DNA from: an uncultured Candidatus Saccharibacteria bacterium
GTDB taxonomy: Bacteria > Patescibacteriota > Minisyncoccia > Phycocordibacterales > UBA9973
NCBI GenBank assembly: GCA_964605995.1
Contig: CAZSEN010000001.1
Coordinates: 1 to 43,844 of the forward strand
Length of the DNA stretch: 43,844 bases
Reading direction: 5' to 3'
In this document: positions 8,749 through 40,509 of the stretch, in pieces
Layout of the letters: every line of letters begins with the position of its first letter
How positions within the stretch are numbered: the stretch's first letter is position 1
Translations under genes and position numbers: made by a program
Notes under the pieces: model-generated
What the model saw: the letters and a program-made list of their open reading frames with translations, nothing else
The model's database searches: none
What the model was told of the DNA's origin: nothing

Positions 8749-9489
8749 TCAAACGGTAACTAGGGAATTATAATCTAACACGATGTGGTAGACTTCAATG
8801 TCCGCTTTTCCTTTAGAACGACCGTGCGTACTTTGATAAACAAATTCGAATGCGTTAACATATGGTGAAATATCGCAGCTTAACTTATGCTTTGCCAAAG
8901 GCTCTTTTGTATTGAGAAGATCTCCATGCCTTGTCAGCAAATCTTGATACGATACAAAAGAAGATGAAATGTCCATTTGATCGCTTGGCGTTTCGGCTTC
9001 TAAAAACGAGATCATCCCAGCGACCGATACATCCGAATTGGGATAGTATTGGCCGTCTAAAAACCGCACTACCCCCTCAGTTACATATTTATCCGCCAAT
9101 GCAGCATTCATTCGCTTGCACTCGAATACATAGTAAATACTACCGTCCAAAAGTGGAGAGCATACTTTAATATCTAAAATCCCAATTTTTATATTTTGAT
9201 AAAATTCCTCTGCTCCTGAAATGAACAGATAATTCCCGAGATTAAATCGTACCCGGTTTGGATTAATATACTTAGCTACTAAATCATTCCTTAAATAATC
9301 TTCCAGTTCCAATCTTTTTGTCGCCCTACCTCTCACCTTACTGGTCAGCGATTTTAAACTATTTCTTGAGTATGGTGTTCCACTTTGAATTTGCGAATAT
9401 GCATAAACAATAAGATTCACACACGAGTCGAACGTAGTATCGCGTTGTGAACCAAGATTGTTTGCTACAAAATCATCAACACCGGTCAT
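8749..9489 (-). CDS. PD-(D/E)xK nuclease-like protein
   Basis: GILDIKV...(17 aa)...FECKR fits D...ExK. Its start overlaps the stop of the upstream methyltransferase gene by 4 nt. Confidence 0.55.
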   Translation of the reverse strand: MTGVDDFVANNLGSQRDTTFDSCVNLIVYAYSQIQSGTPYSRNSLKSLTSKVRGRATKRLELEDYLRNDLVAKYINPNRVRFNLGNYLFISGAEEFYQNIKIGILDIKVCSPLLDGSIYYVFECKRMNAALADKYVTEGVVRFLDGQYYPNSDVSVAGMISFLEAETPSDQMDISSSFVSYQDLLTRHGDLLNTKEPLAKHKLSCDISPYVNAFEFVYQSTHGRSKGKADIEVYHIVLDYNSLVTV

Positions 9490-12400
9490 GCGGAAGTCAC
9501 TTGAGATTTCTTTAATTCTGCCTTCAGGATGATATCATTAATCTCCATCACATCTAGATGTGCAACTGCTTTGTGCCACAATTTCTTTTCATTTGGTTTG
9601 ATGATATAGAACGATGTGTTGGTGAAGCCCCTGACATCCTGTTGGAAATATAAGTCCTTACATGCTTTATAAATCCCCAAATCTCCAAGCAGAACATTCC
9701 AATCCTCATTGGATGTGCGACTTGTAACTATTGTTTCGCATGGATTGGTTTGCATGTGAAAATTAATCCTAACGAAATAGTCATTTAGGATAATTTCCGG
9801 TCGCAAACATTTTTTTGCGTGTTTAAAGCGCTCATTAAAAAAAGAACAAAATATATTGGCATAAGCCTGTAATTGCTTTTCATCCTTAGCGATTTCTGGC
9901 CGAAAAGCTCTAAACGCATCTGAATCAGAATCGCGTAGTAGAACAGGTAACGAAACGTCGAATGCGAAATTAACTAAGTCCATTTCTTGTTCTGTTAACT
10001 TATACGCTTGATTGACTAGTTTGTCGATGGACTTCCGATCAGTCAAATCAGTACCATCGTCCAATGTCTCGTCTCGATTTGTAATCTCCAGTGCAAGCTT
10101 TCCAATTTTTGGCTCATTGGCAAATGGGAAATTAAAAAATTCTGCGAAGTGAACTCTCGTTCTCTCAATACCAGCAGAGGAACTACTGTTCAATAAAAAA
10201 TAAGTAAACAATTTAGAATTTAAGACTCCCGAAAGCGTTGAAAGGAATGACCGCGAATCATCAGAATTATTTGAAGTTGGAACAACTGAACACACAGTTG
10301 AACTAAAGCAAATCTTCTTGTCATTGAACGCTGAAACTGCCCCAAAAAAATGCTCCCCACCTTTGGGCTCAAGAACCAATCCTTTCTTTATCAAAAGCTT
10401 GTTTCCAGCAAAGAATTTCTCATCCGGTACGTATCCGACTTTTGAATTCTCAATGTCTTGAAGAGCGAGTTCTTTTTTCCACTTTTTGCCAGGCGCAACA
10501 ATATATGGTCGAAATTCTTTCTCTGCATCCAAATAGTCGTAACTATGAAATTTACTGGAATCTATTTTTTTCTTCCCATCCTTCAGTTTTAACCCGCCAT
10601 TGGATAAATACCCCAATTCTTCAAAACACTCCTGTATTGTTTGAAACTGACTCTTTAGCCTTTGAAGGAAGTGAATATCTAAAGCACTTCCGTGAACAAG
10701 AACTTTCCATAGCCAGTCATCGCCGCCATATTCCTCAATGAAATACTCTTGTTTAATTCTTTTTACATCATGCTTCTCAACAACAATTGTTTTATAGAAA
10801 AGAAAGAACTTGTTCGGCTTAACGGTAATATGTTGTATCACATTATTGCCGGTGTACTCATGAGTTGATGCAGGGATATACGTAATGATGGCGGCTGGCT
10901 GCCTCGCTTCATCAAAGATGTGGTTGCCACCCCTAATTTTATTATTTACGGGAGAAAGCTCTACAACTTGCTTGACGTGAAATTTCCGTAAAAAGTAATT
11001 TCGAAAAGCTTTAGAGGAGCTTCCAGTATTATATAAAACTTTGCTAGAGACAATAAAGCTGCACTTTGGAACTTTACCATTCGATCTAAAATCGCTCGTG
11101 CGTACCAAAAATGCTTGACAAATTTCTTTGTCTCCAATTTGCAGAGGAACAGCACCTTCGTCTATATCGTTACCCTCTAAAGCATTTCGATTTTCGATAT
11201 ACGAGATATAAAGTGAACGGTCAACATTTCCCCAAGGAGGATTCCCAACAATGAAATCTAAGTTTTTAATCTTTGAATTAAATGGGTGCTCTAAATTGAA
11301 AAAGTCCGCATCCAATCCCCCAAAGAAATTTTCATCCTTCAATTTTTGAAAGCGGAAATTTTCTATCTCCGCAGGTTGCTTGTAATCTAGGATTGTAACG
11401 TAAAGCGAGAAAATTGATATATCAATTGCATCGGGATCAATGTCGACGCCATAGATATTACTTTTAATCAGACTCCATAACTTGGCATCCGATATTTTAG
11501 TTTTTCCAGTAACATGTAACTCTTTCTCAATGATCTTCCTTAATGTTTCAACAAGGAAAATTCCTGAACCGCAGGCAGGGTCAAGTACGCGACAATTTGA
11601 ATCGTCCTTTCCGGAATTCTCCAGGAAAGGTGTAACTGTTTGCGACAAAACATAGTCGACAAGATAAGGAGGAGTATAATATGCTTTTATCTCCTTCTGT
11701 TTTGAGAGCTGTACATTATCATTCTCAAATTCATTTCCAATAAAGTTCTCATAGATACTGCTAATCAGTTCCACCGGAATTATCTCGAAGTCATATACAT
11801 CAAATAAAGAGGGCTGAACCAAATAGCTCTTATACTTCGATCCGGACCCAGCTTTGAAGAACTGAGCGCAGTTAAATAAATACGAGAGTATTTCTAGATG
11901 AGAGTCATTAACTTCCTTTTCTTCATCATACTCGAGCAGACGTCCCTCATATTCCTTAAGAGGGAACATGTCGCCATTATATTTCGTGTTTAAGTACTTA
12001 AAAAATTTATACAGCAATTTCTTATTCCCGATGATTTCGCGGAATGCAGATCGCCTTTCTTCTTTAGTTTCTCCTAATACAATCTCCTGATCGCTAAAAG
12101 TGACATTGCGATCAATCAAATAACTAATAAAAAGGAGTCTTCCAATTAACCTATTTGCAACCCGGGGCGATAACTTTAAGCCATCTTTGGCAACAAGGAT
12201 TCTTCGCGCATCAGTGATATTATTTAAAAGGTAAGTATCGATGTGCTTTTTTGGCTTACCTAAATGATTAAGCGAATTACCCCGGCGAATGTTAACAAAT
12301 GAAAACTCTTTAAATCAATCGAGGTAATTGTCCCCTTTTATGCGCGTCAATCGCTTGGCGCCATCGATAGAAAATTCGCTACCATGATATAAATCAAGGT

Positions 12401-14093: not shown

Positions 14094-15647
14094 ATGGCCT
14101 TTTCTCTTAACCAAATACCGCAAGCGGACATTCTCGACAAAGTGGTGCAAACTGTTGTGGCGATTAATGACTCTATCACTTTGGAATCAGAAATTGCAGA
14201 CCATGTTGGCATCTCATCAAAACAGGTTGAGCGGTATTTGCATGCAGCAGAAATCTTGGGTTTCATTTCAGGAGACTACAAGCAGCCAGGATTAACTGCA
14301 TTTGGAAATGAACTCATTAATGGATTCGTTCAGGATCAGCAAAGTACGTTGAGATCAGCCGTTCTTCGGAATAACTTATTTGCGAAAGTCTTGGAAGAAT
14401 TCAAGAAGAATCCTGATGGCTTAACGGAAAACGAAATTCGAGAATTTATTTTTAATAATTCGCAAGCCGAGGCTCGCACTTCGATTCCTAGAAGAATCAA
14501 AACTGTTCTGTCTTGGCTAAGTTCTGTCGAATTGATTATAGAGGAGAATGAGAAATACAAATTTAATGATCAATTAGAAGACGAACAATCGGAAAAATCA
14601 CCGCAAGATGGAATCTATCCTGTCAACTATTCCAAAGAAGTTGACATAAAAGAAGAAAGTATTTCTGTTTTCGAACTTCGCCGTAAAATTGAGAATGACA
14701 AAATTATCATGAACCCCGACTTTCAGAGACACCTAGTCTGGAAGCCACATCAAAAAAGTCAGTTTATTGAATCCATAATATTGAACGTGCCGCTGCCGCC
14801 ATTTTACTTAAAAAAGGAATTAAACGGAAAATTAATAATCATTGATGGGCTTCAGCGTACATCCACCTTGGAGGCATTTCTTAATCAAGAGGGTGATGAT
14901 TATTTCCCGCTGGAAGGCTTAATGGCACTTCCTCGAATGAATGGAAAATATTTTCATCAATTGGATGAAGACATTCGAACTAGGATTGAAGATAAAAATC
15001 TTCTCATTTATGTTCTTCAACCCACGGTTCCCATGGTGGTTGTTTATGACATTTTTAATCGGATTAATACTGGTGGAACTCAGTTAGAACGTCAAGAAAT
15101 CAGAAACTGCATTTTCATTGGGGAATCAACGCGTCTAATTAAGCGACTAGCTGATGATCCCGATTTTAAGCAAGCAATTGATTATGGAATTGCTCCAACA
15201 AGAATGAAAGATCGGGAGGCCGTGCTGCGCTGCATATCATTTCAAATTTGCGATTATGGTACTGAGTACAATAATTCTTTAGACGATTTCCTTGAGAAGT
15301 CAATGAGGAAAATAAATCGGACACCGCTAGAAGAAATCGAAAAATTAGAGTTAGAGTTTAAGCGCGTAATGAAGATGACCTTTGACTTCTTCGGATACAA
15401 TAACTTTCGATTACCTACGGATTATAGTAGGGGAAGAATAAATATTGCCGTGATGGAATCGGTATACAATTTTTTTGCTAACAGTGACCCACTAGTCTTG
15501 GTCAAAAATAAGAAAGCAATTAAAGAAAACTTTAGTACGTTGCTTGATGATGAAGAATATTATGACGCTGTTAGGTATTCTACGGGCAGCAAGTCTAAAG
15601 TAGATGCGAGATTCAGCATTGCGAAAGCCACATTGGGAAATTTTTAG
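14094..15647 (+). CDS. DUF262 (GmrSD N-terminal/ParB-like nuclease superfamily) protein with N-terminal wHTH-like region
   Basis: NPDFQRHLVWKPHQKSQFIESIILNVPLPPFYL...IIIDGLQRTSTLEAF is the classic DUF262 signature. Confidence 0.85.
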   Translation: MAFSLNQIPQADILDKVVQTVVAINDSITLESEIADHVGISSKQVERYLHAAEILGFISGDYKQPGLTAFGNELINGFVQDQQSTLRSAVLRNNLFAKVLEEFKKNPDGLTENEIREFIFNNSQAEARTSIPRRIKTVLSWLSSVELIIEENEKYKFNDQLEDEQSEKSPQDGIYPVNYSKEVDIKEESISVFELRRKIENDKIIMNPDFQRHLVWKPHQKSQFIESIILNVPLPPFYLKKELNGKLIIIDGLQRTSTLEAFLNQEGDDYFPLEGLMALPRMNGKYFHQLDEDIRTRIEDKNLLIYVLQPTVPMVVVYDIFNRINTGGTQLERQEIRNCIFIGESTRLIKRLADDPDFKQAIDYGIAPTRMKDREAVLRCISFQICDYGTEYNNSLDDFLEKSMRKINRTPLEEIEKLELEFKRVMKMTFDFFGYNNFRLPTDYSRGRINIAVMESVYNFFANSDPLVLVKNKKAIKENFSTLLDDEEYYDAVRYSTGSKSKVDARFSIAKATLGNF

Positions 15648-15650
15648 AAA

Positions 15651-16922
15651 ATGCTCCGACAGCTAACCTTAAAAAACTTTAAACTCTTTAAAGAGGCAAC
15701 TCCAATTCCATTGGCGAATCTCAATTTGTTAACGGGTATCAACGGAAGAGGGAAATCAACTGTTCTTCAGTCATTGTTGTTAATGCGACAATCACCGGAA
15801 TATGATCGAACGACAAGTAAGATCATTTTTAATGGAGATGATATTAGGATGGGAAACTTTCAGGACGTAAAAAATATTGCTTCATCCCCAAGTGAGCCTA
15901 TTGAATTAACATTTCATTACGACGACTTTCACATCCTTTATCAAATCTTTCAGAATAGTAATGATCCTGTGGTTGGCGATATCGGAAATATCTACTTAAC
16001 TGGTAAGGTAGAAGGAGCCGACATAGCTCTAAGGCTCATCAATAATGAGGGAATGTTCAATTATTCGGTTAACCAGGAAGAAATTGACGCAATGTCCATG
16101 ATCTATCTTCATGATCTGTTTATTCATGATGCTGATGTCGAAGGCGTCTTAGGAGACGGGATTGGTCCACACATCAAGGGTGCATTAAACTTTAATCGAG
16201 TTCACTATGTTGCTGCGGATAGAATTGGCCCAAAATTATTTTATAATGAAAAAAGTTTGAAAGATTTTTATTCTGTCGGTCCTTTTGGGGAGGAGACGGT
16301 AAATATCCTACATCACAAAGCCTCTGATCTCTTAGAAGAAGAATTTATTGAAAACATAGCCCGGCTTTTTCATTTAGACCCAGAAGAAATTGGGCGAGAT
16401 GTGGAGCTTCAAACTACATTCTGGCTCTCTAAATTATTTACCAGCGTAAAGTACCGAATCAAAAGGGTTGAGGATGCAAACCTACTGACCTTTAGCATTA
16501 GCCCGGAAGGAACTTTTGATTATTACAAACCAACTAATGTCGGATATGGATTTAGCTATGTTTTGCCAATTATTGTAACGGGATTGATTGCAAAAAGGGG
16601 AGATCTTTTTCTTGTCGAAAATCCGGAAGCACATCTGCATCCGCATGCACAATCGGTTCTTGCAAAGTTTTTGACTCTAGTTAGTTTAAGAGGTGTTCAG
16701 GTTATTATCGAATCCCACAGTGAGCATGTTCTAAATGGGTTAAGAATTCCGGTTTACGACCGAATAATTCCGAATACTCATTTGAACGTTTTATATTTTG
16801 ATCGTAGTCAAGCAGGGTATTTTACAAAAATTGATGTGGCAGAAGATGGAGGAATTGAGAATTGGCCGCCTGATTTCTTCGACCAATCAACAAAAGACCT
16901 GAACTATTTATTTGGAATTTGA
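15651..16922 (+). CDS. AAA-family ATPase with C-terminal DUF3696-like region
   Basis: Walker A at LLTGINGRGKST; LFLVENPEAHLHPHAQ...IIESHSEHVLNG; C-terminal ENWPPDFFDQ. Starts 4 nt after the DUF262 gene. Confidence 0.85.
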   Translation: MLRQLTLKNFKLFKEATPIPLANLNLLTGINGRGKSTVLQSLLLMRQSPEYDRTTSKIIFNGDDIRMGNFQDVKNIASSPSEPIELTFHYDDFHILYQIFQNSNDPVVGDIGNIYLTGKVEGADIALRLINNEGMFNYSVNQEEIDAMSMIYLHDLFIHDADVEGVLGDGIGPHIKGALNFNRVHYVAADRIGPKLFYNEKSLKDFYSVGPFGEETVNILHHKASDLLEEEFIENIARLFHLDPEEIGRDVELQTTFWLSKLFTSVKYRIKRVEDANLLTFSISPEGTFDYYKPTNVGYGFSYVLPIIVTGLIAKRGDLFLVENPEAHLHPHAQSVLAKFLTLVSLRGVQVIIESHSEHVLNGLRIPVYDRIIPNTHLNVLYFDRSQAGYFTKIDVAEDGGIENWPPDFFDQSTKDLNYLFGI

Positions 16923-17727
16923 CAGTATGGAAGTGCTTGTTAACGAAGACTCATTGCATGGCCAATATGCAAATCATGAAGTGATAGAGAAACTTCGCAG
17001 TTTTCTTCGTCTAATAAAGAAGGTCAACCAACTTGAACGACCTCCACGACTTTTACGAAGCGATAAGCTTTTTGAAGCTCAAGCCATAGGCGGAGTTCAT
17101 CTGGGAACAACACTAAATGCTCGTAAAGATTTGTTGGAAACGTTTTTAAATAATTTCAAAAATGCAATACGATGGGAGAATGAAAAAACGCATCAAGATC
17201 AGTCTGCCTATGAGCACGAAAATATCGATTATGTTACACGGTCAATAGCTGAGATTACGGAAAGGCAATTAGTGGGACCCAATATGAATAGGCACTTATT
17301 GAATTTCCCCGATTCCAAATTTGGAACCTCATCTAAATTAAGTATTATCAAGGATAAAATTACTACTAGTGATTTAGCGTGTTCGTTCGATGAAGAATCC
17401 TTCGCGGAATGGCTCATTGAAATCGGACTACTAGATCCTAAGAGGAAATATGATGTGGTCAATGAGAAGCGACCACCGATGGATTATCAAACTGTACTTT
17501 ACGACAAAACTAAATTCACATCAATCGGAGTTAGAAACCAGGGAAGAAAAGTTTACTCAAGGATTGGAACAACGGAATTGTGGGTTGTCGATAATCTGCA
17601 TTTCGGTGGGGCAGCACAAATTGAAGTATTTCGGTCAACAACAAAGGAACACTTAGGAACTTCACCTATTGACAGAGTTCAACCTAACGATAAATCCAAG
17701 GTAAAAGGCCGAACACTAGATCAATAA
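16912..17727 (+). CDS. Hypothetical third component of the DUF262/ATPase operon
   Basis: Overlaps the ATPase gene by 11 nt. No recognised motif; the ATG at 16927 is an alternative start. Confidence 0.55.
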   Translation: MEFDSMEVLVNEDSLHGQYANHEVIEKLRSFLRLIKKVNQLERPPRLLRSDKLFEAQAIGGVHLGTTLNARKDLLETFLNNFKNAIRWENEKTHQDQSAYEHENIDYVTRSIAEITERQLVGPNMNRHLLNFPDSKFGTSSKLSIIKDKITTSDLACSFDEESFAEWLIEIGLLDPKRKYDVVNEKRPPMDYQTVLYDKTKFTSIGVRNQGRKVYSRIGTTELWVVDNLHFGGAAQIEVFRSTTKEHLGTSPIDRVQPNDKSKVKGRTLDQ

Positions 17728-22122: not shown

Positions 22123-23556
22123 ATGTTCGACATCCTTATTTCAATTTTCGAATCACTGTTCAAGATACTCTTCGAATTGCTTTCGATGCTGTTTGGTGGC
22201 TCCAAGCCCAAAGGATACCATGCACGATTTGCATCAGAAGGTACGGTGCTCTCGCGATGGAACAAAGGCTTTTCATTGACTGGTCGCAAACAGATCACGG
22301 CGAAAGATTCATTCACTAACTGCATGGTAGTAGGTTCGACAGGTTCAGGAAAGACGCAGAGTACATTGCTGCCATCGCTCTTTGCGATGAAAGGATCATT
22401 TATTATCGCAGATCAAAGCGGAGAAATTTTCAAATCAACTTCGGGATTTCTTCATCAGGAAAAGGAATACAATATCAAGATTCTCAACTTGAGCGATGCG
22501 TTATGTTCTTCGGGATTCAATCCAATGAGCCGCGCAAATACTTCTAATGAAATTCAGAAGCTCGCCTCCATGCTGGTGCGCACCACGCTCTCGGGCGGAA
22601 AGGCATCAGATCCATTCTGGGAGACACAAGCGACAACATTGTTGGTCATCCTCATTTCTATTCTGAAGACGCAACCCGAGCAGTATCAGAATCTGTACAA
22701 TGTTCGCCAACTGCTCAATCAGCTTTCAGAGAAGCCAGAAGAAGGACAAAACAATTCCGTCGATTCTTTATTTGTTCGTTACGCCGATCCCGTGCTTTAC
22801 AATGAATACAAGTCGTTCATTGCGTATGACGACAAGTTGCAGACTTCGATTATTGCTTCTGCTAAGTCCGCGCTGACGATTTTCGCCGATGAGACCGTTG
22901 CCCGGATAACTTCGAAGGATACCCTTGATTTTTCTGAATTCCGCAAACGCCCGACTGCGCTATACCTGCAATGCGGCATTCAGGATATGGCCTATTACAG
23001 TCCACTTTACGCGATTTTCTACGAGCAACTTGCTGCGTATCTCCTTTCTCGGTTTCCTACCGATGAGGAACAAGACATCTTCATTTTTGCCGAAGAATTT
23101 GGTTCCACAAATCGCGTACCCGTGTTTCCGGCATTTTTTGCGAATTGTCGAAAGTATCGCGCCGGAATAATGGCCATCGTTCAGGATTATAACCAGATCG
23201 TGAATATCTACGGGAAAGCGGAAGCGGAGTCCATTCGCACCAATTGCTTTTCCAAAGTGTTCTTTGGCGGCGGCTCACTTGAATCAACAAAGGAGCTTTC
23301 TGAGATACTCGGCAAAACCGAATACAAAACAGAGGAAGGGAGGCGCGACGTGATGCCATTGCTCACGCCGGATAGCATCAGGATGCTGAAGAAGGATCGC
23401 GCTTTGGTTATTTGCGGCAGTCATCCACCGATATTGGCCAATGTCCGCCCTGCATACAAAAGTCTTCGCTATCGCGCGTATATGGCCGTACAACCGCCAA
23501 TAGTTAGGGGCGATGCTCCGCAATCAGTAGCAATCCTGCCATTGGGCAGTAAATAA
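22123..23556 (+). CDS. Type IV secretion coupling protein (TraG/VirD4/MobC-of-CTn type), short form
   Basis: Walker A at VVGSTGSGKTQSTLLPS; Walker B-like DIFIFAEEFGS; later IMAIVQDYNQI. Confidence 0.85.
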   Translation: MFDILISIFESLFKILFELLSMLFGGSKPKGYHARFASEGTVLSRWNKGFSLTGRKQITAKDSFTNCMVVGSTGSGKTQSTLLPSLFAMKGSFIIADQSGEIFKSTSGFLHQEKEYNIKILNLSDALCSSGFNPMSRANTSNEIQKLASMLVRTTLSGGKASDPFWETQATTLLVILISILKTQPEQYQNLYNVRQLLNQLSEKPEEGQNNSVDSLFVRYADPVLYNEYKSFIAYDDKLQTSIIASAKSALTIFADETVARITSKDTLDFSEFRKRPTALYLQCGIQDMAYYSPLYAIFYEQLAAYLLSRFPTDEEQDIFIFAEEFGSTNRVPVFPAFFANCRKYRAGIMAIVQDYNQIVNIYGKAEAESIRTNCFSKVFFGGGSLESTKELSEILGKTEYKTEEGRRDVMPLLTPDSIRMLKKDRALVICGSHPPILANVRPAYKSLRYRAYMAVQPPIVRGDAPQSVAILPLGSK

Positions 23557-23563
23557 AAGAAAT

Positions 23564-24133
23564 GTGGCTACGCGATCTGCACGTCATTCCGGATTGTGGG
23601 AGTATCTCGAGAAGTCGGGCGTGCTGGTCAGTGGGTCGGATGAAGAAATAAAAACGGTACGGCGTGAGTATCGCAAAATATACCTGAAACAGTACAAGCA
23701 ACAGCAGCGCAAACACAAGCCTGAATTTTTGGTGCAGTTATCACGTGATGGCGAATTAACCACAATCACTGCCGCAGCAAAAAAACACCGCATGAGTGTT
23801 ACCGCATTCCTCCGCCTGGCAACACTGTCGTATATCTCTCGCGTGTTTCTCATTCCTGATCGCCAACTTGTCGGAAAACTCGCAGGACTTCTTGAGTCAT
23901 GCCTGAATGAGGTTCGGGCAATGACAAGCGTGAAAACGAAACAGAACTCTTTCCTGTTGGAAGAAAAGTACGATGCCATCGAGCGGCGCATTATCGAACT
24001 TCAATCAGAACTTCAAAAACTTTTCTTTCATCCGGCATTGCTTGAATCGGCAGTCGCTGAAGCGATACGCATCGATCCTACACTTCGGGATCGTCTGCAA
24101 ATAATTCTCTCTCATGCCCATCGTGAAGATTAA
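23564..24133 (+). CDS. Relaxosome accessory protein (MobC/RHH-like)
   Basis: LVQLSRDGELTTITAAAKKHRMSVTAFLRLATL resembles the MobC-type ribbon-helix-helix. Located directly upstream of the relaxase. Confidence 0.55.
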   Translation: MATRSARHSGLWEYLEKSGVLVSGSDEEIKTVRREYRKIYLKQYKQQQRKHKPEFLVQLSRDGELTTITAAAKKHRMSVTAFLRLATLSYISRVFLIPDRQLVGKLAGLLESCLNEVRAMTSVKTKQNSFLLEEKYDAIERRIIELQSELQKLFFHPALLESAVAEAIRIDPTLRDRLQIILSHAHRED

Positions 24134-24923
24134 GACATACAAAAAACCGAAGTTTGATTATCTGCTCCGGTATATGTGCGAGTCGCAGGACCGGCTCTTT
24201 GACGCGCAAGGGAAGAGCTTTAGGATTACGCACAACATCCGAGGGAAAACCATTGAGGACTGGACACGAAGTTTCCGGGAGAATGAAACGTACCGACAGC
24301 GAAGGCGGAAGAATTCGGTGTACCTCAATCACGAGATCATAAGTTTTCATCGTGATAGCACCAAGCATTTATCAATGGAAAAGCTGGAACAACTCGTTAG
24401 GGAATACATACAATTACGAAACCCGAACGGATGCTACGTGGCTGTTCCACATTTTGACCGTTACCACGTGCATGTCCACATCTGTTCGTCTGCTGTTCAA
24501 TACAGGACAGGAAAAAGTATGCGAATGAGCCGAGGGGAATTGGCTGCGCTCAAAAAGAAGATTCAGGATTTCCAGGTGGAGCGGTTTCCGGAATTGGGAA
24601 GGTCGGTGGTGAGGCATGTGAGGAAAGCAAATGGAAAAGCGTCTGAAAGGGAAATGCAGTATGAGCTGCGGACGGGGAAGATGAGCAAGAGGGAAATGGT
24701 GCGACACATTGTGCAAGACTGTCACCGACGATCTTCATCGCAGGAGGAGTTTTTTGCGCTGTTGAAAGAACAGGGAATGGAGACGTATGTGCGGGGAGGG
24801 AAGGTGTATGGGGTGGTGTGCGAGGGGAAGAAATATAGGTTTACCGCAATGGAACTTGATAAAACTGAACAAGAGAATGACATTAGTAGGGTCAAAAAAG
24901 CCGACCGGGAATTGAAGCGGTAG
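24114..24923 (+). CDS. Relaxase / mobilisation nuclease
   Basis: N-terminal MPIVKIKTYKK..., then a histidine triad at HFDRYHVHVHI (HxDxxHxHxH). Confidence 0.85.
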   Translation: MPIVKIKTYKKPKFDYLLRYMCESQDRLFDAQGKSFRITHNIRGKTIEDWTRSFRENETYRQRRRKNSVYLNHEIISFHRDSTKHLSMEKLEQLVREYIQLRNPNGCYVAVPHFDRYHVHVHICSSAVQYRTGKSMRMSRGELAALKKKIQDFQVERFPELGRSVVRHVRKANGKASEREMQYELRTGKMSKREMVRHIVQDCHRRSSSQEEFFALLKEQGMETYVRGGKVYGVVCEGKKYRFTAMELDKTEQENDISRVKKADRELKR

Positions 24924-24937
24924 TGTATGAGCCTAGT

Positions 24938-25939
24938 TTATTTGTTGTTTTCTATGTTCCCTAATCCATTGCATAAAATATCCATTAACGCATCGCTAAT
25001 TCTCACATCTGTCATTAATTCCAACCACAACCACTGTCCGTTACAATTATTTTCCAAAAAATAATATCTCTTATCTTCAGCATAAACAAAATCAAATGCA
25101 GAATATACTAATTGCTGCCGCTTCATGAATTCTAAAATCAATTCCGTGATATAATCCGGAAGAATATGTGGTCGATGAATCATGTTCTCGGGAGATTTCC
25201 CTCTAAAATCAATTTTCGAGAGTTCATGGGTCTGAGAGTGGATTTCAAAAGCAAAAATTTTATACCCCACAACAACCACTCTTACGTCAAATAATTTCGC
25301 AATGTACTGTTGAAATAAAGTAGGGCAAATTTTAATGGCATCAAAAGCATCCTCTATCTCACTTCTTGATCGTATGAGTCTGGTTAAATATGGATACAAC
25401 TTCCCATCCAGGTAAAAATTAGGCTCATCAAGACTCTTATTGCAAATCAATTCATGAACATCGAAAAAGAGCAAAGCCTCTTGAGGGTTGTTTGTCACCA
25501 ATGTTTCCGGGACATCAAATCCCAATGCTTTGGCTGTTGTAAGCTGTTGCAATTTGATTCTGGCGCGGTGTATAGAAGGTAGTGGATTTATCCAAATAGC
25601 TGTGTCATGAAGACAAAAGTATAACCCTCTTAAAACTGCATTCGCCTGTTGTTCACAGAATAAATTAACTTCAGGTTGATCGTAAACAGTTGAATTTATT
25701 TTTTGTGGTCGTCTAAACCAGACGGAAAGAATTTCGTCACTGGAAAAGTTTCGTTTGGAATCTTTAAGATGAATACGAAAGGATTTATTTTGGTACGAGA
25801 TATCAACATTTCCTAAAAAATCTTCAGTGTTGAGACGAACTACTTTTTCCGAAAAACCCTCTTTATTAAATCGGTCAATAATGAAGTCACTATGAGGGTC
25901 ATTCGCAGAAGTAATTATTAAAGCCTTGTTTGCTTTCAT
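24938..25939 (-). CDS. ATP-grasp peptide maturase-like ligase (microviridin MdnB/C-like)
   Basis: 333 aa. The N-terminus ALIITSANDPHSDFIIDRFNKEGFSEKVVRLNTEDF resembles graspetide maturases as I remember them. It sits beside a GNAT and a small Thr/Asp-rich ORF. Confidence 0.7.
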   Translation of the reverse strand: MKANKALIITSANDPHSDFIIDRFNKEGFSEKVVRLNTEDFLGNVDISYQNKSFRIHLKDSKRNFSSDEILSVWFRRPQKINSTVYDQPEVNLFCEQQANAVLRGLYFCLHDTAIWINPLPSIHRARIKLQQLTTAKALGFDVPETLVTNNPQEALLFFDVHELICNKSLDEPNFYLDGKLYPYLTRLIRSRSEIEDAFDAIKICPTLFQQYIAKLFDVRVVVVGYKIFAFEIHSQTHELSKIDFRGKSPENMIHRPHILPDYITELILEFMKRQQLVYSAFDFVYAEDKRYYFLENNCNGQWLWLELMTDVRISDALMDILCNGLGNIENNK

Positions 25940-26435
25940 ATTCTATTTTTGAAAGGAGGTTCGATGCTAATTCAGTTGGGAAATATTTCCTTTGTAATAC
26001 AAGAGTTTGTCTCTCCGCTTTGCAAATTTCCGTAAATCCGAGAGCTTGAACGACTCGCAGACTTCGGTTATTTTCCAAGTTGATTTCTACAAGCAAATCC
26101 TTCTCAATTTCGGATTTGAAATAGAAATCGAATAAGATGGCAGAAGCCAACAATCCTTTCCCTGAATTAAACATATCCGGCGATATCCCTCCTGATACCT
26201 TTGTATAATCCTTACCCAATAGAAAGTGAGCAAAGAAGATAGCTTTCTTTTTGTAGACGAGTGTATATCGGCGTAAATTATTGAAAGGTCTTAAAGCAAT
26301 TTCTTCAACTCGTGTTCTGAATTCGGGAGGAGAGATATCGATAGAATAATTGGTACAGAATTCTCTATTTGAGAAACACTCAATATACAAGCCGAAAATT
26401 ATAGGCTGTGTTTCTAGAATTTGATAATCACACAA
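25899..26435 (-). CDS. GNAT-family N-acetyltransferase-like protein
   Basis: NSGKGLLASAIL (Q/RxxGxG/A-like) and NNRSLRVVQALGF motifs. Overlaps the ATP-grasp ORF by 41 nt. Confidence 0.5.
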   Translation of the reverse strand: MCDYQILETQPIIFGLYIECFSNREFCTNYSIDISPPEFRTRVEEIALRPFNNLRRYTLVYKKKAIFFAHFLLGKDYTKVSGGISPDMFNSGKGLLASAILFDFYFKSEIEKDLLVEINLENNRSLRVVQALGFTEICKAERQTLVLQRKYFPTELASNLLSKIEYESKQGFNNYFCE

Positions 26436-26455
26436 TGAGTATGCTTTGTTTTCAA

Positions 26456-26707
26456 TTAATCAGTTCCGGTATCATCTGTGTCGTTATCACTATCATTTGA
26501 TCCTATCAACAATGGATATGTGGAAGTCACCTGCGACCATGTAGTTGGTTCAGATTTGCCCATTGAAAGTATGTCTGAGGTTTGCGAATTTGCATCATAG
26601 GCAGATCCTACATCAGATTCATAACCCCTTTCTGTATTAGAAATGGTATCCAAGTAATGCATACCAAGCGGCAGTTGTTTCATACTTTGAATTTTACTGA
26701 TTTTCAC
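26456..26707 (-). CDS. Candidate RiPP (graspetide) precursor peptide, 83 aa
   Basis: Small ORF 20 nt upstream of the GNAT gene. Its C-terminus is TTWSQVTSTYPLLIGSNDSDNDTDDTGTD, rich in Thr/Ser and Asp. Confidence 0.45.
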   Translation of the reverse strand: MKISKIQSMKQLPLGMHYLDTISNTERGYESDVGSAYDANSQTSDILSMGKSEPTTWSQVTSTYPLLIGSNDSDNDTDDTGTD

Positions 26708-26761
26708 ATAATAAAGATATAAATATTTGATTTCAATCCAAATTATTAGACAGTAAATGAT

Positions 26762-27538
26762 CTAAACGGCCAGATTTTTTGGCACGACCGCTGGATTGAC
26801 CTCAGGTAATTCGAAGACGTATCTTCCGTCTTTTTCGGTGTAAAATCTGGCACGCGATGAAGCGGAACTTTTTTTAGAAAAAGTTTTTACGCCGATGTTT
26901 TCATACTCTCCGGAGAGATATTTGATTTCTCCGGCAATAACGTTCTGTGTTTCTTTGATGAATTCACCCATTGGTCGAAATACAGAATTATTCAAAACGA
27001 TTGGTTGCGTTTTTGCATGTAAATTCCCTGCAATCACCAGGATGCGCCCCCCGGATTTCCTTCCCAGTATCATCTCTGCCATGTTCTTGTCCCTACTGTT
27101 TGTCCTTCTGTCGGGTGCTTGTTGGTCAAAACAAACTACATTATCAAGTACTCCTTCTTCATTAAGTTTTTTTATTAGGGCAAAATGACCGGCGGTCACT
27201 CTTCCATCACAACTATCCATTATCAAAGGAAAGGCAATTTCTCCCGACATAAGATATTCTTCTAAAACGGATTGCAGATTCTGATCCCATTCTAATGCGA
27301 TGTTTCTGAAGCCAAACTTTTTTACAAGTGTATATATGACATCAATATTTTCTTTTACCCCGTGGACTTCACCCAAAAGGAATATTGGTGCTTCTTGAAG
27401 TTGTGCAATAAAAGTCTCCATGCTTTTATTTTCAAAATCAAAATCAATAAGATTTACTTTGGTATCGGAAATGGCTTCGACGAAAGCACGACGACCTTTT
27501 TCAATATTATATTCATGAGTCTGTGGTGAAGATTCCAC
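26762..27538 (-). CDS. ChaN/TIKI/TraB-PrgY superfamily protein
   Basis: IFLLGEVHG, IALEWDQNLQSVLEEYLMSGEI and LVIAGNLHA match the ChaN-type pattern (GE.H ... E ... G..H). Confidence 0.6.
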   Translation of the reverse strand: MESSPQTHEYNIEKGRRAFVEAISDTKVNLIDFDFENKSMETFIAQLQEAPIFLLGEVHGVKENIDVIYTLVKKFGFRNIALEWDQNLQSVLEEYLMSGEIAFPLIMDSCDGRVTAGHFALIKKLNEEGVLDNVVCFDQQAPDRRTNSRDKNMAEMILGRKSGGRILVIAGNLHAKTQPIVLNNSVFRPMGEFIKETQNVIAGEIKYLSGEYENIGVKTFSKKSSASSRARFYTEKDGRYVFELPEVNPAVVPKNLAV

Positions 27539-27750
27539 AGATACATATTAGCATCGAATAATTCCTCCAGGCAAGAACCGCACTCAAGGGGTTATACCTT
27601 TCACATCTGGAACAGGCACGGCGCTTGCAACTTCGCTTATACATTTGGTTTACAGAAAATCCTTGCCCGGCATTGGTCACCCTTTGCCGTGCTTGTGATT
27701 TTCCTGGCTTCCATTTCGCTCGGGGTGCTCGAGGGGTTCTACCCCTCGAC

Positions 27751-27800
27751 AAGATTGCAAGCTGCCGGTTTACGAAAGTTTACCGGCAGCTTGCAATCTT
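27751..27800. repeat. Perfect 19-bp inverted repeat with 12-nt loop
   Basis: aagattgcaagctgccggt (27751-27769) pairs with accggcagcttgcaatctt (27782-27800). Flanked by hairpins at 27729-27749 (tcgagggg/cccctcga) and 27804-27819 (ctgcg/cgcag). Confidence 0.8.
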
Positions 27801-27944
27801 GCGCTGCGCCTTCACGCAGTCTCGCTTACGCGTCCTTCCTTTCCGGTTGAATGTCCTTTAGGCTTTCTTCCGGAATGATTGGACGCGCTTTGATCCAGTA
27901 TGCTTAGATTGTTTCATTCCTGGGTTGTTACTTCCTAAGGATTC

Positions 27945-28241
27945 CTACCCGGTTTTGAAATTGGTAAGTTCAGCCGTTTCTATTCCAAGAGCCTTTGCAA
28001 TCACTGCGATGCTCGTGATTCCGGTCTCATAATGTCCCTTTTCGATTCGCAGGATCGTCGTCCGGTCCATGTCGCACTCATATGCCAGCTGATCCTGGGA
28101 CATGCCTTCTTTTTCACGCAATTCGCGCACGCGATTCCCAAACGCCACTAGAAATAGCTTCGCCTCCCGGGTGAGTGCTCGTTCCTTCTTTCGAGCCTTT
28201 TTGCCGGGAGCTGTCCTGGATTTTTTGATTCCTTCCTTCAC
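27945..28241 (-). CDS. XRE-family HTH transcriptional regulator
   Basis: FGNRVRELREKEGMSQDQLAYECDMDRTTILRIEKG is a canonical HTH_3. Confidence 0.85.
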   Translation of the reverse strand: MKEGIKKSRTAPGKKARKKERALTREAKLFLVAFGNRVRELREKEGMSQDQLAYECDMDRTTILRIEKGHYETGITSIAVIAKALGIETAELTNFKTG

Positions 28242-37192: not shown

Positions 37193-37508
37193 GAGAGAAC
37201 TATACCATCATGTAGTGCGAAAGTCCATTTGAACTATCATATGTAGATCAAGAAAAACTCAAGAAATGAGCTTGACAAAAATTACTTTATCTGCTAGAGT
37301 AATGTTGGTCGTTTATAAAGTTTAATAATACCCACTGTCCCCGAAAGGGGATCAGCCGAAAGGCTCGATGGAACTTTGGGTTTGTATTATAGCGAAGTTT
37401 CGTGAGAGGATGTGAACGCACATCAATATAGAAACCATCGTTCTTTCTATAAAGAAAGGAACGACTAATGCAAACACCCACTGATTCCATCGGTGGGTGT
37501 TTGCATTT

Positions 37509-38474
37509 ATGAAGTTAAACGAAGCAATAACCAAATTCGAAGAATACTACAAACTGAGAGTGAAGGGTGGAACAATCCGGGGCTATGCACTTGACCTGCG
37601 CCAGCTCTGTCTTTTTCTGCGCAATCCGGCCATTGAGAACGTCCAGGACGAGGATATCATATCGTACTTGAACGGAATGCTCGAATGCGGATGGAATCAG
37701 AATGCACTTATGCCTAAAAGTATTGCATTTCGAAAGTTTTTCCAGTATCTGTCACTGAAAGGATATCGCGTTCTTAACTATCAACTCATCCCGATTATTA
37801 AGAAGCATTTCGTACTTCCGCACGTTGCGGAAAAATGGGAGTACGAGAAGATTATGGAATTCTTTTCTGTCGACTCAAAAGAAAAACATATTATTCGTAA
37901 CCGCGCGATAACGAGTCTCATTTATGATTCTGGTGCCCGTGTCGGCGAAATTGTTGCACTCAATATTGAAGACATTGATCTTGAAAATAAGAGGGCGGTG
38001 ATAAAAACCGAAAAATCTCGCGGCAAAGCCCCGGCGCGACAGATATTCTGGGAAGATGAGACAAACGAAAATCTTAAAAAGTGGTTAGCCGTCAGAGCAG
38101 AGATTTCCGGTTATGTCGATTTTCCAGAGCCGGATGCATTGTTCGTTGGTGTGAGATGCTGGCAGATCGGAAAGCGTTTGACCAATAGCGCCGTTGGTAT
38201 CTTCCTTCGTCACGCATCCCGAAAAATTGGCCTCAAGCGCGTTATGAATCCACACTCGTTGAGACACCTCAAAGGCAACGACATGGCAGAAATGAATACT
38301 AACGAGTTCGTAATCTCTCAGATCCTTGGACACTCTCAAGTTTCAAGTTCGAGAATCTATACACTGCTGAAATCTCCCGTTCTGGAAAAAGCGGCACGAC
38401 GCATTAATGAAAACCGACAGATGCTGCGTTCACCTTTCCAATTGACAACCGAATCGAAGGTGGCGAATGGATAG
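37509..38474 (+). CDS. Xer-like tyrosine recombinase / integrase
   Basis: N-terminal SAM-like domain (GYALDLRQLCLFL), DSGARVGEIVALNIEDID (Arg), NPHSLRHLKG (HxxR) and ILGHSQVSSSRIYT (His...Tyr). ATG 37509; the track gives GTG 37497. Confidence 0.85.
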   Translation: MKLNEAITKFEEYYKLRVKGGTIRGYALDLRQLCLFLRNPAIENVQDEDIISYLNGMLECGWNQNALMPKSIAFRKFFQYLSLKGYRVLNYQLIPIIKKHFVLPHVAEKWEYEKIMEFFSVDSKEKHIIRNRAITSLIYDSGARVGEIVALNIEDIDLENKRAVIKTEKSRGKAPARQIFWEDETNENLKKWLAVRAEISGYVDFPEPDALFVGVRCWQIGKRLTNSAVGIFLRHASRKIGLKRVMNPHSLRHLKGNDMAEMNTNEFVISQILGHSQVSSSRIYTLLKSPVLEKAARRINENRQMLRSPFQLTTESKVANG

Positions 38475-39361: not shown

Positions 39362-39368
39362 ATGATTG

Positions 39369-39439
39369 CGGGAGGTGGAGGAATCGAACCCCCGACAGCG
39401 GTTTTGGAGACCGCAGTTATGCCATTTAACTAACCTCCC
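39369..39439 (-). tRNA. tRNA-Trp (anticodon CCA)
   Basis: Folded by hand: acceptor gggaggt/acctccc, D-arm gtta-aatggca-taac, anticodon arm gcggt-ctCCAaa-accgc, T-arm ggggg-ttcgatt-cctcc. 71 nt with no encoded CCA. Confidence 0.85.
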
Positions 39440-39468: not shown

Positions 39469-40368
39469 TTATTTCAAAAAATTTTTAACTGAATGATTGA
39501 TTTTTCTCAAATCCTTCTTGTGCTTCGGATTGAACCACTGTATTCTGCTGTCTTTTTTGAACCATGTATCCTGTCGTTTGGCATATCTCCAGATTTCAGT
39601 TGAAAGTTTCTCAACCATCTCTTTCTTCGTGATCTTCTTTTGAAGATAGAGCGCCTCGTATTTATATTCAAGGCCGAGCGCCTCCATCCGTTTCCATGAT
39701 AATCCTTTAATATGAAGCCTCTTTGCTTCTCGAAGCATTCCATCTCTAATTCTTTCAATGAGCCTGGCATTTATTTTTTGTTTAAAAAATTTTTCAGGTA
39801 ATTTCAATCCTATTTGGAGAACTTCATAATTTTTCACAGCCTTTTTTATAGCAGGAACGCTGCCCAGTTTTTTTGCAATTTCAATCGCTCGGATCAAACG
39901 TACTTTATTGTGCCGGTCGATTTCATGAGCTCTTCTTGGATCAATTTTTTTCAATATCTTGAAAAGCTCCCCAGCTGATTTTTTCTCAAGCTGTTTTCGG
40001 AGTTTTTCATTGGGTTTCACTTCCGGATAGGAAATATTGTCGACGACTGCATGGATATAAAACCCGGTACCTCCGCAAAGAATCGGGAGTTTTCCCTTTT
40101 TTAAAATCTCTTGTATTTTTTCATCAGCCAGTTTTTTGAAATCTGAAACATTAAAAATTCGTTTCGGGTCTGCGACATCAAGCAAATGATGGGGAATGCC
40201 GGACATTTCTTTTCTGGTCACTTTGCCAGTTCCAAGATTGAGTCCTTTATAGACTTGTCGCGAGTCGGCAGAAACAACTTCACCTTCGAATTTCTTGGCG
40301 ATTTCTATGGCAAGCCCGCTTTTACCGGTCGCTGTTTGGCCGACTATGGCTATTAGTTTGGGTTTCAT
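39469..40368 (-). CDS. miaA: tRNA dimethylallyltransferase
   Basis: MKPKLIAIVGQTATGKSGLAIEIAK...VSADSRQVYKGLNLGTGK. Start is set at ATG 40368; the longer track ORF runs into the tRNA-Leu gene. Confidence 0.9.
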   Translation of the reverse strand: MKPKLIAIVGQTATGKSGLAIEIAKKFEGEVVSADSRQVYKGLNLGTGKVTRKEMSGIPHHLLDVADPKRIFNVSDFKKLADEKIQEILKKGKLPILCGGTGFYIHAVVDNISYPEVKPNEKLRKQLEKKSAGELFKILKKIDPRRAHEIDRHNKVRLIRAIEIAKKLGSVPAIKKAVKNYEVLQIGLKLPEKFFKQKINARLIERIRDGMLREAKRLHIKGLSWKRMEALGLEYKYEALYLQKKITKKEMVEKLSTEIWRYAKRQDTWFKKDSRIQWFNPKHKKDLRKINHSVKNFLK

Positions 40369-40393
40369 AATTAATGAATAGAGTAGCAGAAAA

Positions 40394-40424
40394 TAAAAAA
40401 CCGCGCTATGCTGCGCGGTTTTTC
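40394..40424. terminator. Bidirectional hairpin between tRNA-Leu and miaA
   Basis: aaaaaaa-aaccgcgc-tatgct-gcgcggtt-tttc. Confidence 0.5.
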
Positions 40425-40427
40425 TTG

Positions 40428-40509
40428 TGCCCGAGGAGAGAATCGAACTCTCACATCTTTCGATACACGATTTTGAGTCGTGCGCGTCTACCAATTCCGC
40501 CACTCGGGC
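40428..40509 (-). tRNA. tRNA-Leu (anticodon CAA)
   Basis: The minus strand reads gcccgagtggcggaattggtagacgcg...cacga-ctCAAaa-tcgtg, then a long variable arm, T-arm gagag-ttcgatt-ctctc and acceptor ctcgggc-a. Confidence 0.85.

Follow-up and report, generated by a model that had tools for sequence, protein, structure and literature searches.

The region examined here belongs to an uncultured Candidatus Saccharibacteria bacterium (GenBank assembly GCA_964605995.1, contig CAZSEN010000001.1, positions 1 to 43,844 of the forward strand); the window is this whole stretch of 43,844 nucleotides (nt). Between positions 24938 and 27538 it carries four minus-strand genes, which encode an ATP-grasp ligase, a GNAT-like protein, a small peptide and a hydrolase of the Ere/ChaN/TIKI superfamily. 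The locus is a genuine and probably functional cluster, of an uncharacterised family and on a mobile element, for a graspetide, an omega-ester-linked peptide that is made by ribosomes and modified after translation (RiPP). The features of the cluster, with protein lengths in amino acids (aa), were as follows.

24938-25939, minus strand: predicted ATP-grasp graspetide maturase, 333 aa, with an MvdD-type pre-ATP-grasp domain and an ATP-grasp domain.
25899-26435, minus strand: diverged GNAT acyltransferase, by its sequence of the RimJ/RimL (Acetyltransf_3) type, 178 aa, TTG start.
26456-26683, minus strand: predicted graspetide precursor, 75 aa, from the ATG at 26683; the mechanical open reading frame (ORF) is 26456-26707, from the GTG at 26707, 83 aa.
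26684-26761, minus strand: spacer between the hydrolase and precursor genes, 78 nt, with a sigma-70-like promoter match at 26736-26708.
26762-27538, minus strand: Ere/ChaN/TIKI-superfamily hydrolase, predicted to be cytoplasmic, 258 aa, GTG start, assigned from profiles, an AlphaFold2 (AF2) model and Foldseek.

There is a 41-nt overlap between the GNAT and ATP-grasp genes, and gaps of 20 nt and 78 nt separate the precursor gene from the GNAT gene and the ChaN-like hydrolase gene from the precursor gene, respectively. GC contents were 0.354 for the ATP-grasp gene, 0.358 for the GNAT gene, 0.399 for the precursor and 0.394 for the ChaN-like gene, compared to 0.48 for the adjoining relaxase gene, 0.49 for the intergenic region on the other side and 0.51 for the helix-turn-helix (HTH) gene beyond it; the 2.6-kb low-GC island is essentially the four cluster genes. 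An earlier sequence-only reading of this DNA had described four tightly packed minus-strand genes carried as AT-rich cargo, and it was borne out on both counts. All four genes lie where it had placed them, and the motifs that it had quoted (LLGEVHG, IALEWDQ and AGNLHA), as well as the peptide tail, are all present in the translations. Homologues numbered 270 for the ATP-grasp protein and 112 for the ChaN-like protein. Since each of the four ORFs has homologues elsewhere, they are real genes and not chance ORFs. As a whole, the locus is best explained as a graspetide cluster of a horizontally scattered family, carried as 2.6 kb of low-GC cargo beside the relaxase of an integrative element, and we hold this explanation with good, though not complete, confidence.

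The identity of the 333-aa protein carries much of this explanation. Consistent with the earlier suggestion that its N-terminus resembles graspetide maturases, the MvdD pre-ATP-grasp domain of Pfam (PF21068) was matched above its cut-off (1.4e-9, 38.5 bits; cut-off 27), and a RimK domain was matched at 7.5e-5. Full-length matches, including those to TIGR04187, TIGR04185 and TIGR04184, were obtained to NCBIfam maturase models; the scores were 1.9e-65 for TIGR04187, the best-scoring curated ligase model (221 bits; cut-off 350), 1.4e-49 for MvdC (168.9 bits; cut-off 425) and 1.3e-47 for MvdD (162.6 bits; cut-off 475). The grasp-with-SPASM model TIGR04192 scored 95 bits (4e-27; cut-off 230), and the RimK family model 33 bits (3.6e-8; cut-off 143). 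Every NCBIfam maturase score lies under its curated cut-off, and the ligase was therefore assigned as a graspetide maturase outside the curated families. Its matches in the PDB were graspetide ligases only: CdnC (3.2e-39), MdnB (6.1e-36), AMdnB, MdnC and 9bou. D244, R246, E296, N297 and N298 were invariant across 42 relatives, so that the ENN metal site and the DFR motif (IDFRG), the importance of which in graspetide synthetases has been stated (PMC13097080), are both kept. It is the single ATP-grasp gene in the island and within several kb.

A different reading of the same protein is that it is a RimK/glutathione-synthetase-type ligase of primary metabolism, in which case the small ORF would be spurious. 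Many relatives of the ligase have been named 'glutathione synthase/RimK-type ligase-like' by Joint Genome Institute (JGI) annotators, and the weak Pfam match to the RimK domain points the same way. However, the graspetide-maturase models scored 163-221 bits compared to 33 bits for RimK, the protein has the MvdD pre-ATP-grasp domain, its PDB matches were all graspetide ligases, and a conserved precursor always adjoins the related ATP-grasp genes. The NCBIfam scores, the PDB matches and the conserved precursor rule out primary metabolism, which we regard as extremely improbable; by its sequence, the 333-aa protein is a graspetide maturase and not an enzyme of the RimK/glutathione-synthetase type.

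Related loci were gathered by context look-ups and by a genome scan using the ligase-family alignment. A precursor homologue, in the form of a 73-81-aa ORF, was found directly upstream of every close ligase by hidden Markov model (HMM) and tblastn searches, giving approximately 19 distinct loci once near-duplicates had been collapsed. The named hosts of this precursor-(GNAT)-ligase arrangement included Nostoc, Dolichospermum and other cyanobacteria, Caldisericales, Eubacteriales, Hyphomonadaceae, Formivibrio, Chloroflexota (Caldilineaceae and Chloroflexaceae), Mucilaginibacter and WOR-3. The precursors were approximately 40-56% identical across the family, and a phmmer search of 1.84 billion representatives revealed nine further full-length relatives. 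No precursor model in Pfam or NCBIfam, including TIGR04186 and PF14404, was matched. An 83-aa ORF had originally been put forward as the precursor; the conserved small ORF in the homologous loci confirmed the choice of gene but not its length. Because the homologue alignment and the gene call of the collection both give 75 aa, the start is most likely the ATG at 26683 (MKQLPLG...), not the GTG at 26707.

Residues of the precursor are numbered from this ATG. In the 19 aligned precursors R19, G20, Y21, Y29, Q34, P46, T47, T48, S50 and T55 were invariant, as were D64, D66, D70, D71, G73 and D75 at the C-terminal end. The N-terminus of the family precursor has a P-hydrophobic motif (LPFGM), which reads LPLGMHYL in the window copy. 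The predicted leader spans approximately 26552-26683 (LPLGM..RGY..Y..Q..MG) and the predicted core approximately 26459-26551 (EPTTWSQVTSTYPLLIGSNDSDNDTDDTGTD). The signature of the core, PTT-x-S...T...D-x-D-x3-DD-x-G-x-D, includes four invariant hydroxyl residues and five invariant Asp residues. The TYP of the window core, previously likened to the KYPSD of microviridins, is peculiar to this copy; the relatives have STG at that place and a spacer that is three residues shorter, and the resemblance is not conserved. There is no Lys in the window core, and Lys is not conserved in the core of the family, though some relatives have DDKGTD. Since Lys is not conserved, cross-linking by esters only, with no lactam, can reasonably be expected for the window copy.

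Two places in the precursor are candidate sites for leader cleavage: an MG(K/G) site that immediately precedes the core, and the surroundings of the invariant Tyr29. In the latter, Y29 is followed by (D/N)-P-x-(T/S/L)-Q (residues 29-34; 26582-26599 in the window), and the window copy reads YDANSQ. The toxin domain RRSP cuts Ras at Y/DPT, after the Tyr (PMC6254334); the likeness of the two sites could be a coincidence or a lead to the cleavage site.

The neighbours of the module differ in other loci of the family. In L155 (3299-6007) and L156 (2267-4975) there is a convergent gene for a 902-aa M16 (pitrilysin-type) peptidase, in L007 (2016-4838) a 196-aa protein, a radical-SAM enzyme and a GT2 glycosyltransferase are encoded downstream, and L153 (2163-4225) has an IS91 transposase and an integrase. 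These differences suggest variable tailoring or processing genes and frequent mobility.

The gene between precursor and ligase had been described as GNAT-like, and analysis of its family agreed with that description. Nine of ten aligned members match PF13302 (Acetyltransf_3; best 8.4e-13), and among PDB entries the family profile matched acetyltransferases of the SpeG and RimJ/L types (best 1.3e-10). The window protein itself gave a weak match to PF13302 (E = 0.066), under the cut-off, and was 34-42% identical to its closest orthologues (L007-L015; 41%, E = 1e-42, for L007). These orthologues came from the related loci; a homologue search with the window protein returned itself only. The family has an invariant G92 and an almost invariant G94 in its acyl-CoA loop (x-x-x-G-x-G), as well as a conserved N122..S125..G133-F134 motif. 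The window loop is F-N-S-G-K-G, its first position being hydrophobic rather than Q/R. Taken together, the comparisons mark the 178-aa protein as a diverged GNAT of the predicted RimJ/RimL type. A GNAT gene was present in approximately 12 of the 19 distinct loci, between precursor and ligase and overlapping the ligase start, and was absent from the sister sub-family (L022, L023, L025-L027 and L157), in which the cores end in ..DKDTKKDD.

In microviridin biosynthesis MdnD acylates the new N-terminus after leader removal. By analogy, the GNAT may N-acylate the peptide once the leader has been removed, or it may serve as a partner protein, for which partner-dependent graspetide synthetases provide a precedent (PMC13097080). 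In the latter case it would resemble MirC of the rosaritide pathway, as a partner or chaperone that the ligase needs for its activity and that has no catalysis of its own. In every GNAT-containing locus examined, the start codon of the ligase lies within the GNAT gene, an arrangement that suggests 1:1 production, and the window protein is too diverged for any Pfam GNAT threshold. Nevertheless, the family keeps the acyl-CoA-binding G-x-G loop and the N..S..GF motif, nine of its ten members score as Acetyltransf_3, and related ligases work without a GNAT gene in the sub-family that lacks it. A purely non-catalytic role was therefore judged rather unlikely. The whole family keeps the precursor and the ligase, which form a module with the GNAT, found in about two thirds of the loci.

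The cluster was then compared with characterised systems. The sequence-only reading had called it microviridin-like, and several features are shared with the microviridin and marinostatin systems (group 1: MdnA-E, MvdA-E): an MvdD-type ligase for a ribosomal precursor, a GNAT in the cluster, side-chain esters predicted to run from Thr/Ser to Asp/Glu, and a P-hydrophobic motif near the leader N-terminus (PFFARFL in microviridins, LPxGM here). In contrast to microviridin clusters, which have two ligases (the ester-forming MdnC/MvdD and the amide-forming MdnB/MvdC), the window cluster has one. The microviridin core, TxKYPSDxE/D, contains Lys, whereas the family core, PTTxS..T..DxDx3DDxGxD, has no conserved Lys. 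The cluster also differs in the place of its GNAT gene, between the precursor gene and the ligase gene into which it runs, and in the lack of an ABC transporter. With a single ligase, no PFFARFL leader and scores far below the cut-offs of the MvdC and MvdD equivalogs, the microviridin-like label had to be given up.

Nearest in ligase score and in precursor layout were the actinobacterial SAV_5884-type systems (TIGR04187 ligase, TIGR04186/PF14404 precursors; graspimiditides and fuscimiditide). Kitasatospora precursors of this type (PMC8939145 supplement) resemble those of the window family in a '..DP.TQ..' leader motif, a Thr/Ser-rich stretch and an Asp-rich C-terminus. However, the window ligase falls below the TIGR04187 cut-off and the precursors match neither TIGR04186 nor PF14404. 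SAV_5884-type clusters also have a PIMT-type O-methyltransferase, whereas the island has none and carries a GNAT instead, so that no aspartimide step would be expected. The closest solved structure by sequence is the chryseoviridin ligase CdnC (7mgv; 3.2e-39 over the whole length), but the relationship is distant, and the precursors and cluster make-up differ from those of the window. Graspetide clusters of Bacteroidota integrative and conjugative elements, from P. gingivalis (bioRxiv 10.64898/2026.08.04.741601), are likewise integrative-element cargo in which the precursor is often missed by gene callers; they are of the grasp-with-SPASM type (GwsG/GwsS) with type I secretion genes, whereas the window cluster has no SPASM/radical-SAM or transport gene nearby. 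Graspetides have been expanded to 43 groups, with partner-protein dependence shown (Carter et al. 2026; PMC13097080). The motifs DDTGTD, DDKGTD and EPTT were not found in the part of the RODEO dataset of PMC13097080 that was covered, the precursor motifs were absent from the supplements of Makarova et al. 2022 (PMC8939145), and the motif was found in no paper.

The fourth gene encodes the hydrolase. The 258-aa protein scored below the cut-off of PF04187 (ChaN; 1.4e-4, 22.4 bits; cut-off 27.7) and was sub-threshold for PF05139 (Erythro_esteras), which only a few of its relatives reach in precomputed matches; to judge from these profiles, it is a member of the superfamily that belongs to neither curated family. 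Its AF2 model had a predicted local distance difference test score (pLDDT) of 92 and a predicted template modelling score (pTM) of 0.91. Foldseek matches with a probability of 1.00 were 2qgm/3b55 (Bcr135/136), 6xcq (EreC), 6a7h (RRSP), 2ebf (PMT C1) and 2g5g (ChaN), the top matches being the Ere-family proteins Bcr135/136 and EreC; the protein thus has the alpha/beta fold of the superfamily, with its core of parallel beta-sheet. EreC was also the best PDB match of the family profile (1.1e-4), with the GE.H, LE and RD..MA motifs aligned. In 44 aligned sequences E57, E83, W84, D111-G112-R113, G171 and H174 were invariant, and H59 and R149 were conserved in at least 90%. The predicted catalytic set is E57-x-H59, E83, R149 and H174, the positions having been assigned through sequence alignment to EreC and not from coordinates. 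These residues match the TIKI-family 2His/2Glu+Arg set, which is essential in RRSP and has been proposed to activate water for ester- or peptide-bond hydrolysis (PMC6254334). The fold and the intact catalytic residues agree with the earlier placement of the protein in the ChaN/TIKI/TraB-PrgY superfamily. The protein looks catalytically competent, and the fold alone does not separate a peptidase from an esterase.

EreC (6xcq) and Bcr135/136 (3b55/2qgm) share the fold and His/Glu set and are the best sequence and structure matches, but the window protein is approximately 150 residues shorter than the Ere proteins, 10-16% identical to them, and encoded next to a RiPP precursor instead of in a setting of resistance. 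The core fold and the 2His/2Glu+Arg set are also common to the TIKI endopeptidases (TIKI1/2, RRSP of MARTX toxins and TraB/PrgY), to which the structural similarity is lower (query-normalised TM-score, TMq, 0.43-0.45, compared to 0.52-0.62 for Ere), and the window protein has no membrane or localisation domains. By sequence and fold the closest characterised relatives are therefore esterases, not peptidases. No signal peptide was found in the hydrolase. The haem-binding role of ChaN appears unlikely, given the fully conserved hydrolytic 2His/2Glu set and the lack of a signal peptide. The closest relatives (47-50% identity) are on low-GC, CPR-like (candidate phyla radiation) contigs with unrelated neighbours, and a second clade is high-GC and actinobacterial. 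One relative, P0052 (L150, 344-1702), is fused to a C-terminal GNAT (Acetyltransf_1, 1.4e-15), which belongs to a different Pfam family from the window GNAT encoded two genes from the hydrolase; another, P0076, is fused to a DUF6886-like region.

Whether the hydrolase belongs with the graspetide module was assessed from both gene families. In the window the two are on the same strand, 78 nt apart, and in a common low-GC island. When metagenomes were scanned with the hydrolase alignment, 80 loci were recovered; 62 of these had at least 500 bp downstream and were informative. In one of these 62, L078 (Ga0265334_10024524; 2,445 bp, GC 0.34), positions 1105-2445 hold a ChaN-like gene, a precursor-like ORF downstream of it on its strand, and the start of an ATP-grasp gene. 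The precursor-like ORF is 74 aa long (precursor HMM, 1.1e-5) and has the NYNPELQ motif of the family, a Ser-rich stretch and an SSKRDTKKDD tail. A hairpin (caatgaaacg...cgtttcattg) lies between it and the ligase start, where MLLIITNKKDGH is a typical ligase N-terminus; the contig ends 12 codons into the ATP-grasp gene. There is no GNAT in L078, and the gene order, ChaN-like, precursor, ATP-grasp, is as in the window, although the two precursors belong to different sub-families. Because both families are rare, the adjacency occurs twice in the same order, and the low-GC island is shared, coincidence is an uncomfortable explanation.

A number of points weigh against the overall explanation of the locus. 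The hydrolase HMM found no member in the 54 ligase-gathered genome loci or the other ligase loci, and the hydrolase was absent from all of the approximately 13 distinct close graspetide loci that have enough upstream sequence to be informative. Within its own family, 61 of the 62 informative metagenomic loci had no ATP-grasp or precursor nearby, as was also the case for the contexts L002-L006, L150 and L151, and no ATP-grasp match was obtained in any of the 62. The window and L078 hydrolases are not sisters, being 47% identical while that of L078 is up to 59% identical to unlinked members. The precursor may have its own promoter in the 78-nt spacer, a suggestion that comes from a match to the sigma-70-like consensus alone, such matches being no commoner in the region than in shuffled sequences. 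Neither an exporter nor a recognised leader peptidase is encoded in the island. The number and topology of the rings are predicted from residue conservation only. Finally, the window GNAT may be non-catalytic: it is the most diverged of its family, is sub-threshold in Pfam, and has a single-sequence AF2 model with a pLDDT of 34.

A conserved pairing with the ChaN-like gene, as the sequence-only reading might have led one to expect, is thus contradicted by its absence from the other related graspetide loci and by hydrolase relatives that nearly all lie away from ATP-grasp genes. The association is clearly sporadic, and the hydrolase is an optional accessory gene rather than a fixed partner. Elsewhere, the slot upstream of the precursor is occupied by genes for a 226-aa membrane protein or a 199-aa Zn-ribbon/membrane protein, which suggests that it is an accessory position. 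Nor was the pairing new, as had been supposed. Tiki/TraB-family peptidases in 'branch 2' graspetide loci of the CPR, and erythromycin-esterase homologues in gammaproteobacterial 'cluster 575' graspetide loci, were reported by Makarova et al. 2022 (PMC8939145), who proposed leader cleavage, further modification or resistance for such genes. The idea, a TIKI-superfamily hydrolase adjoining a graspetide ATP-grasp, is the same, those being proposals and not experimental results. Since none of the ATP-grasp loci gathered, from the CPR or elsewhere, held a match to the hydrolase HMM, the window hydrolase would be a recruitment separate from those cases.

One explanation of this pattern makes the ChaN-like gene a passenger that serves some other function in the cell and is unrelated to the three-gene module which it happens to adjoin. 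Its family is mostly solitary, occurs on CPR-like and actinobacterial contigs among unrelated neighbours, is in places fused to other domains (P0052 and P0076), and is found in no other locus of the window's graspetide family; the possible separate promoter of the precursor and a GC content (0.394) slightly above that of the ligase and GNAT genes (approximately 0.355), though equal to that of the precursor, are in keeping with a passenger. On the other hand, precursors from two sub-families each have a ChaN-like gene immediately upstream on their own strand, and these two genes are not sisters; with both gene families so rare, this is hard to obtain by chance. The gene in the window is, moreover, inside the low-GC island, not in the backbone. 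We consider a passenger a serious possibility that falls somewhat short of an even chance. On balance, we lean towards the hydrolase acting on this peptide, with modest assurance. Within that functional link, a leader peptidase would take the largest share and is put forward tentatively, an omega-ester esterase takes a smaller one and is rather doubtful, and any other role on the peptide seems quite unlikely.

The first of these roles stems from the sequence-only reading, in which the cluster was of the microviridin type and the ChaN/TIKI-like protein a dedicated leader peptidase that frees the N-terminus of the core for acetylation by the GNAT. A link to peptide pheromones exists for PrgY and TraB relatives. 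True endopeptidases (TIKI and RRSP) are found in the TIKI superfamily, the 2His/2Glu+Arg set of the hydrolase is intact, the island encodes no other protease, and a GNAT of the RimJ/L type would depend on an N-terminus that is free within the cell. L078 has the same gene order, the role is the same as that proposed for the Tiki/TraB genes of CPR graspetide loci (PMC8939145), and the RRSP site resembles the invariant Tyr and following (D/N)-P-x-(T/S/L)-Q of the precursors, a lead only. Against this, the cluster departs from microviridins (a single ligase, neither PFFARFL nor TxKYPSD, and scores under the MvdC and MvdD cut-offs), the hydrolase gene is missing from most members of the graspetide family, and the nearest characterised relatives of the hydrolase are esterases rather than peptidases. 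The window YDANSQ also lacks the Pro of the RRSP-like site, and L078 has a hydrolase but no GNAT; protease-then-acetylation logic is therefore not general. In this full form the proposal is possible but on the unlikely side.

Erythromycin esterases open macrolide lactones. Similarly, the hydrolase might be an esterase that opens omega-ester macrolactones, in self-immunity, in proofreading of mis-formed rings or in turnover. The ester is the class-defining bond of graspetides, the best PDB sequence match of the hydrolase was EreC, and its top Foldseek matches were Bcr135/136 and EreC. The Ere enzymes and TIKI proteases have been proposed to share a His-Glu water-activating mechanism (PMC6254334), modification or resistance has been suggested for the Ere homologues of gammaproteobacterial graspetide loci (PMC8939145), and the genes in the slot upstream of the precursor are varied, as immunity genes often are. 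Yet the hydrolase has no signal peptide and would therefore share a compartment with the ligase, with the risk of a futile cycle; no graspetide esterase has been described, and the association with graspetides is rare. We consider an esterase less probable than a peptidase. The more ambitious joint reading, that the hydrolase is a dedicated graspetide processor (the first TIKI-type RiPP leader peptidase or the first graspetide omega-ester esterase) recruited at least twice, and that the module is a new four-ester group, is entertained as a tentative, minority view.

The following pathway is proposed for the cluster. The ligase would bind the leader through the P-h-x-h motif 'LPxGM', RGY and Y..Q, and would phosphorylate Asp carboxylates with ATP, giving up to four Thr/Ser-Asp macrolactones in EPTTWSQVTSTYPLLIGSNDSDNDTDDTGTD; as the core has no conserved Lys, no lactam would be formed. 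The GNAT, translationally coupled to the ligase, would then acylate the peptide, the likeliest target being the new N-terminus after leader removal, or would alternatively assist the ligase. The hydrolase, if linked, would remove the leader or hydrolyse the esters, having been acquired with the module as an optional accessory.

For many graspetides, little is understood of how the leader is removed (PMC11626197, PMC10885120), and the literature yielded no described enzyme for the reversal of graspetide ester cross-links. If the hydrolase is a small soluble cytoplasmic peptidase that acts on a graspetide, it would be a new tool for core release; if it is an esterase that does so, it would represent a new resistance or proofreading principle. 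The precursor family, which extends from cyanobacteria to Caldisericales and has no curated model, is useful independently of this question, and direct expression of the compact three-gene system (two-gene without the GNAT) could yield a new ring topology. The cluster is a good experimental target, yet not a new kind of system.

The features that flank the cluster were as follows.

22123-23556, plus strand: type IV coupling protein, VirD4/TraG-like (PF02534, 1.3e-51), context.
24114-24923, plus strand: MobA/VirD2-type relaxase (PF03432, 8.4e-14; GC 0.48), context, outside the cluster.
27539-27944, minus strand: GC-rich intergenic region at the upstream edge of the low-GC island, with three stacked hairpins.
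27945-28241, minus strand: HTH_3 protein, 98 aa, backbone by its GC of 0.51.

The relaxase gene is convergent with the ATP-grasp gene, the two being 14 nt apart, and the coupling protein is 24-29% identical to those of plasmids (PLSDB). Integrase genes are located at 7003-8445 and 37497-38474, and a tRNA-Trp gene at 39368-39439. The adjoining mobility genes and a GC content of 0.35-0.40, compared to 0.48-0.51 in the flanks, identify the island as cargo of an integrative mobile element. No DNA match to the four-gene island was found in plasmids, and no direct repeats flank it. The cluster was also considered as a known defence system, and this was rejected since PADLOC matched none of the four proteins.

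Between the HTH and hydrolase genes, the hairpin region had a predicted RNA fold of -68.3 kcal/mol (z = -8.0). The hairpins at 27700-27830, on the minus-strand transcript, include a perfect 20-bp inverted repeat (27750-27769 and 27782-27801) and a 9-bp GC-rich stem. They are not followed by a T-tract and had no Rfam match, and the repeat occurs once in the window. Possible identities for these hairpins, which lie at the border of the low-GC island, are a terminator, an insulator and an insertion scar. The HTH_3 protein resembles the control (C) proteins of restriction-modification (RM) systems (PADLOC, 8.3e-18); there are no adjoining RM genes.

A second low-GC block contains three consecutive plus-strand genes (14094-17727) that PADLOC matched to NsnA (1.2e-112), NsnB (3.8e-103) and NsnC (2.5e-66), a candidate complete NsnABC-type anti-phage system composed of a GmrSD-like nuclease, an AAA_15 ATPase and a third gene. 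An 877-aa Eco57I/MmeI-like type IIG RM protein is encoded in the same block (9486-12119, minus strand; GC 0.37-0.38), and the integrase gene at 7003-8445 is just outside it. The mobile position of the cluster, beside restriction and NsnABC-type defence cargo, adds to the evidence for RiPP clusters as cargo of integrative elements.

The outer part of the region contains tRNA-Trp, miaA, ParB and RelA/SpoT genes. A tRNA-Leu(CAA) gene (40427-40509) overlaps the 5' end of the mechanical miaA ORF (39469-40503), and the true miaA start is therefore further downstream. The tRNA-Trp gene at 39368-39439, which follows miaA and is close to the integrase gene at 37497-38474, is a possible integration site.

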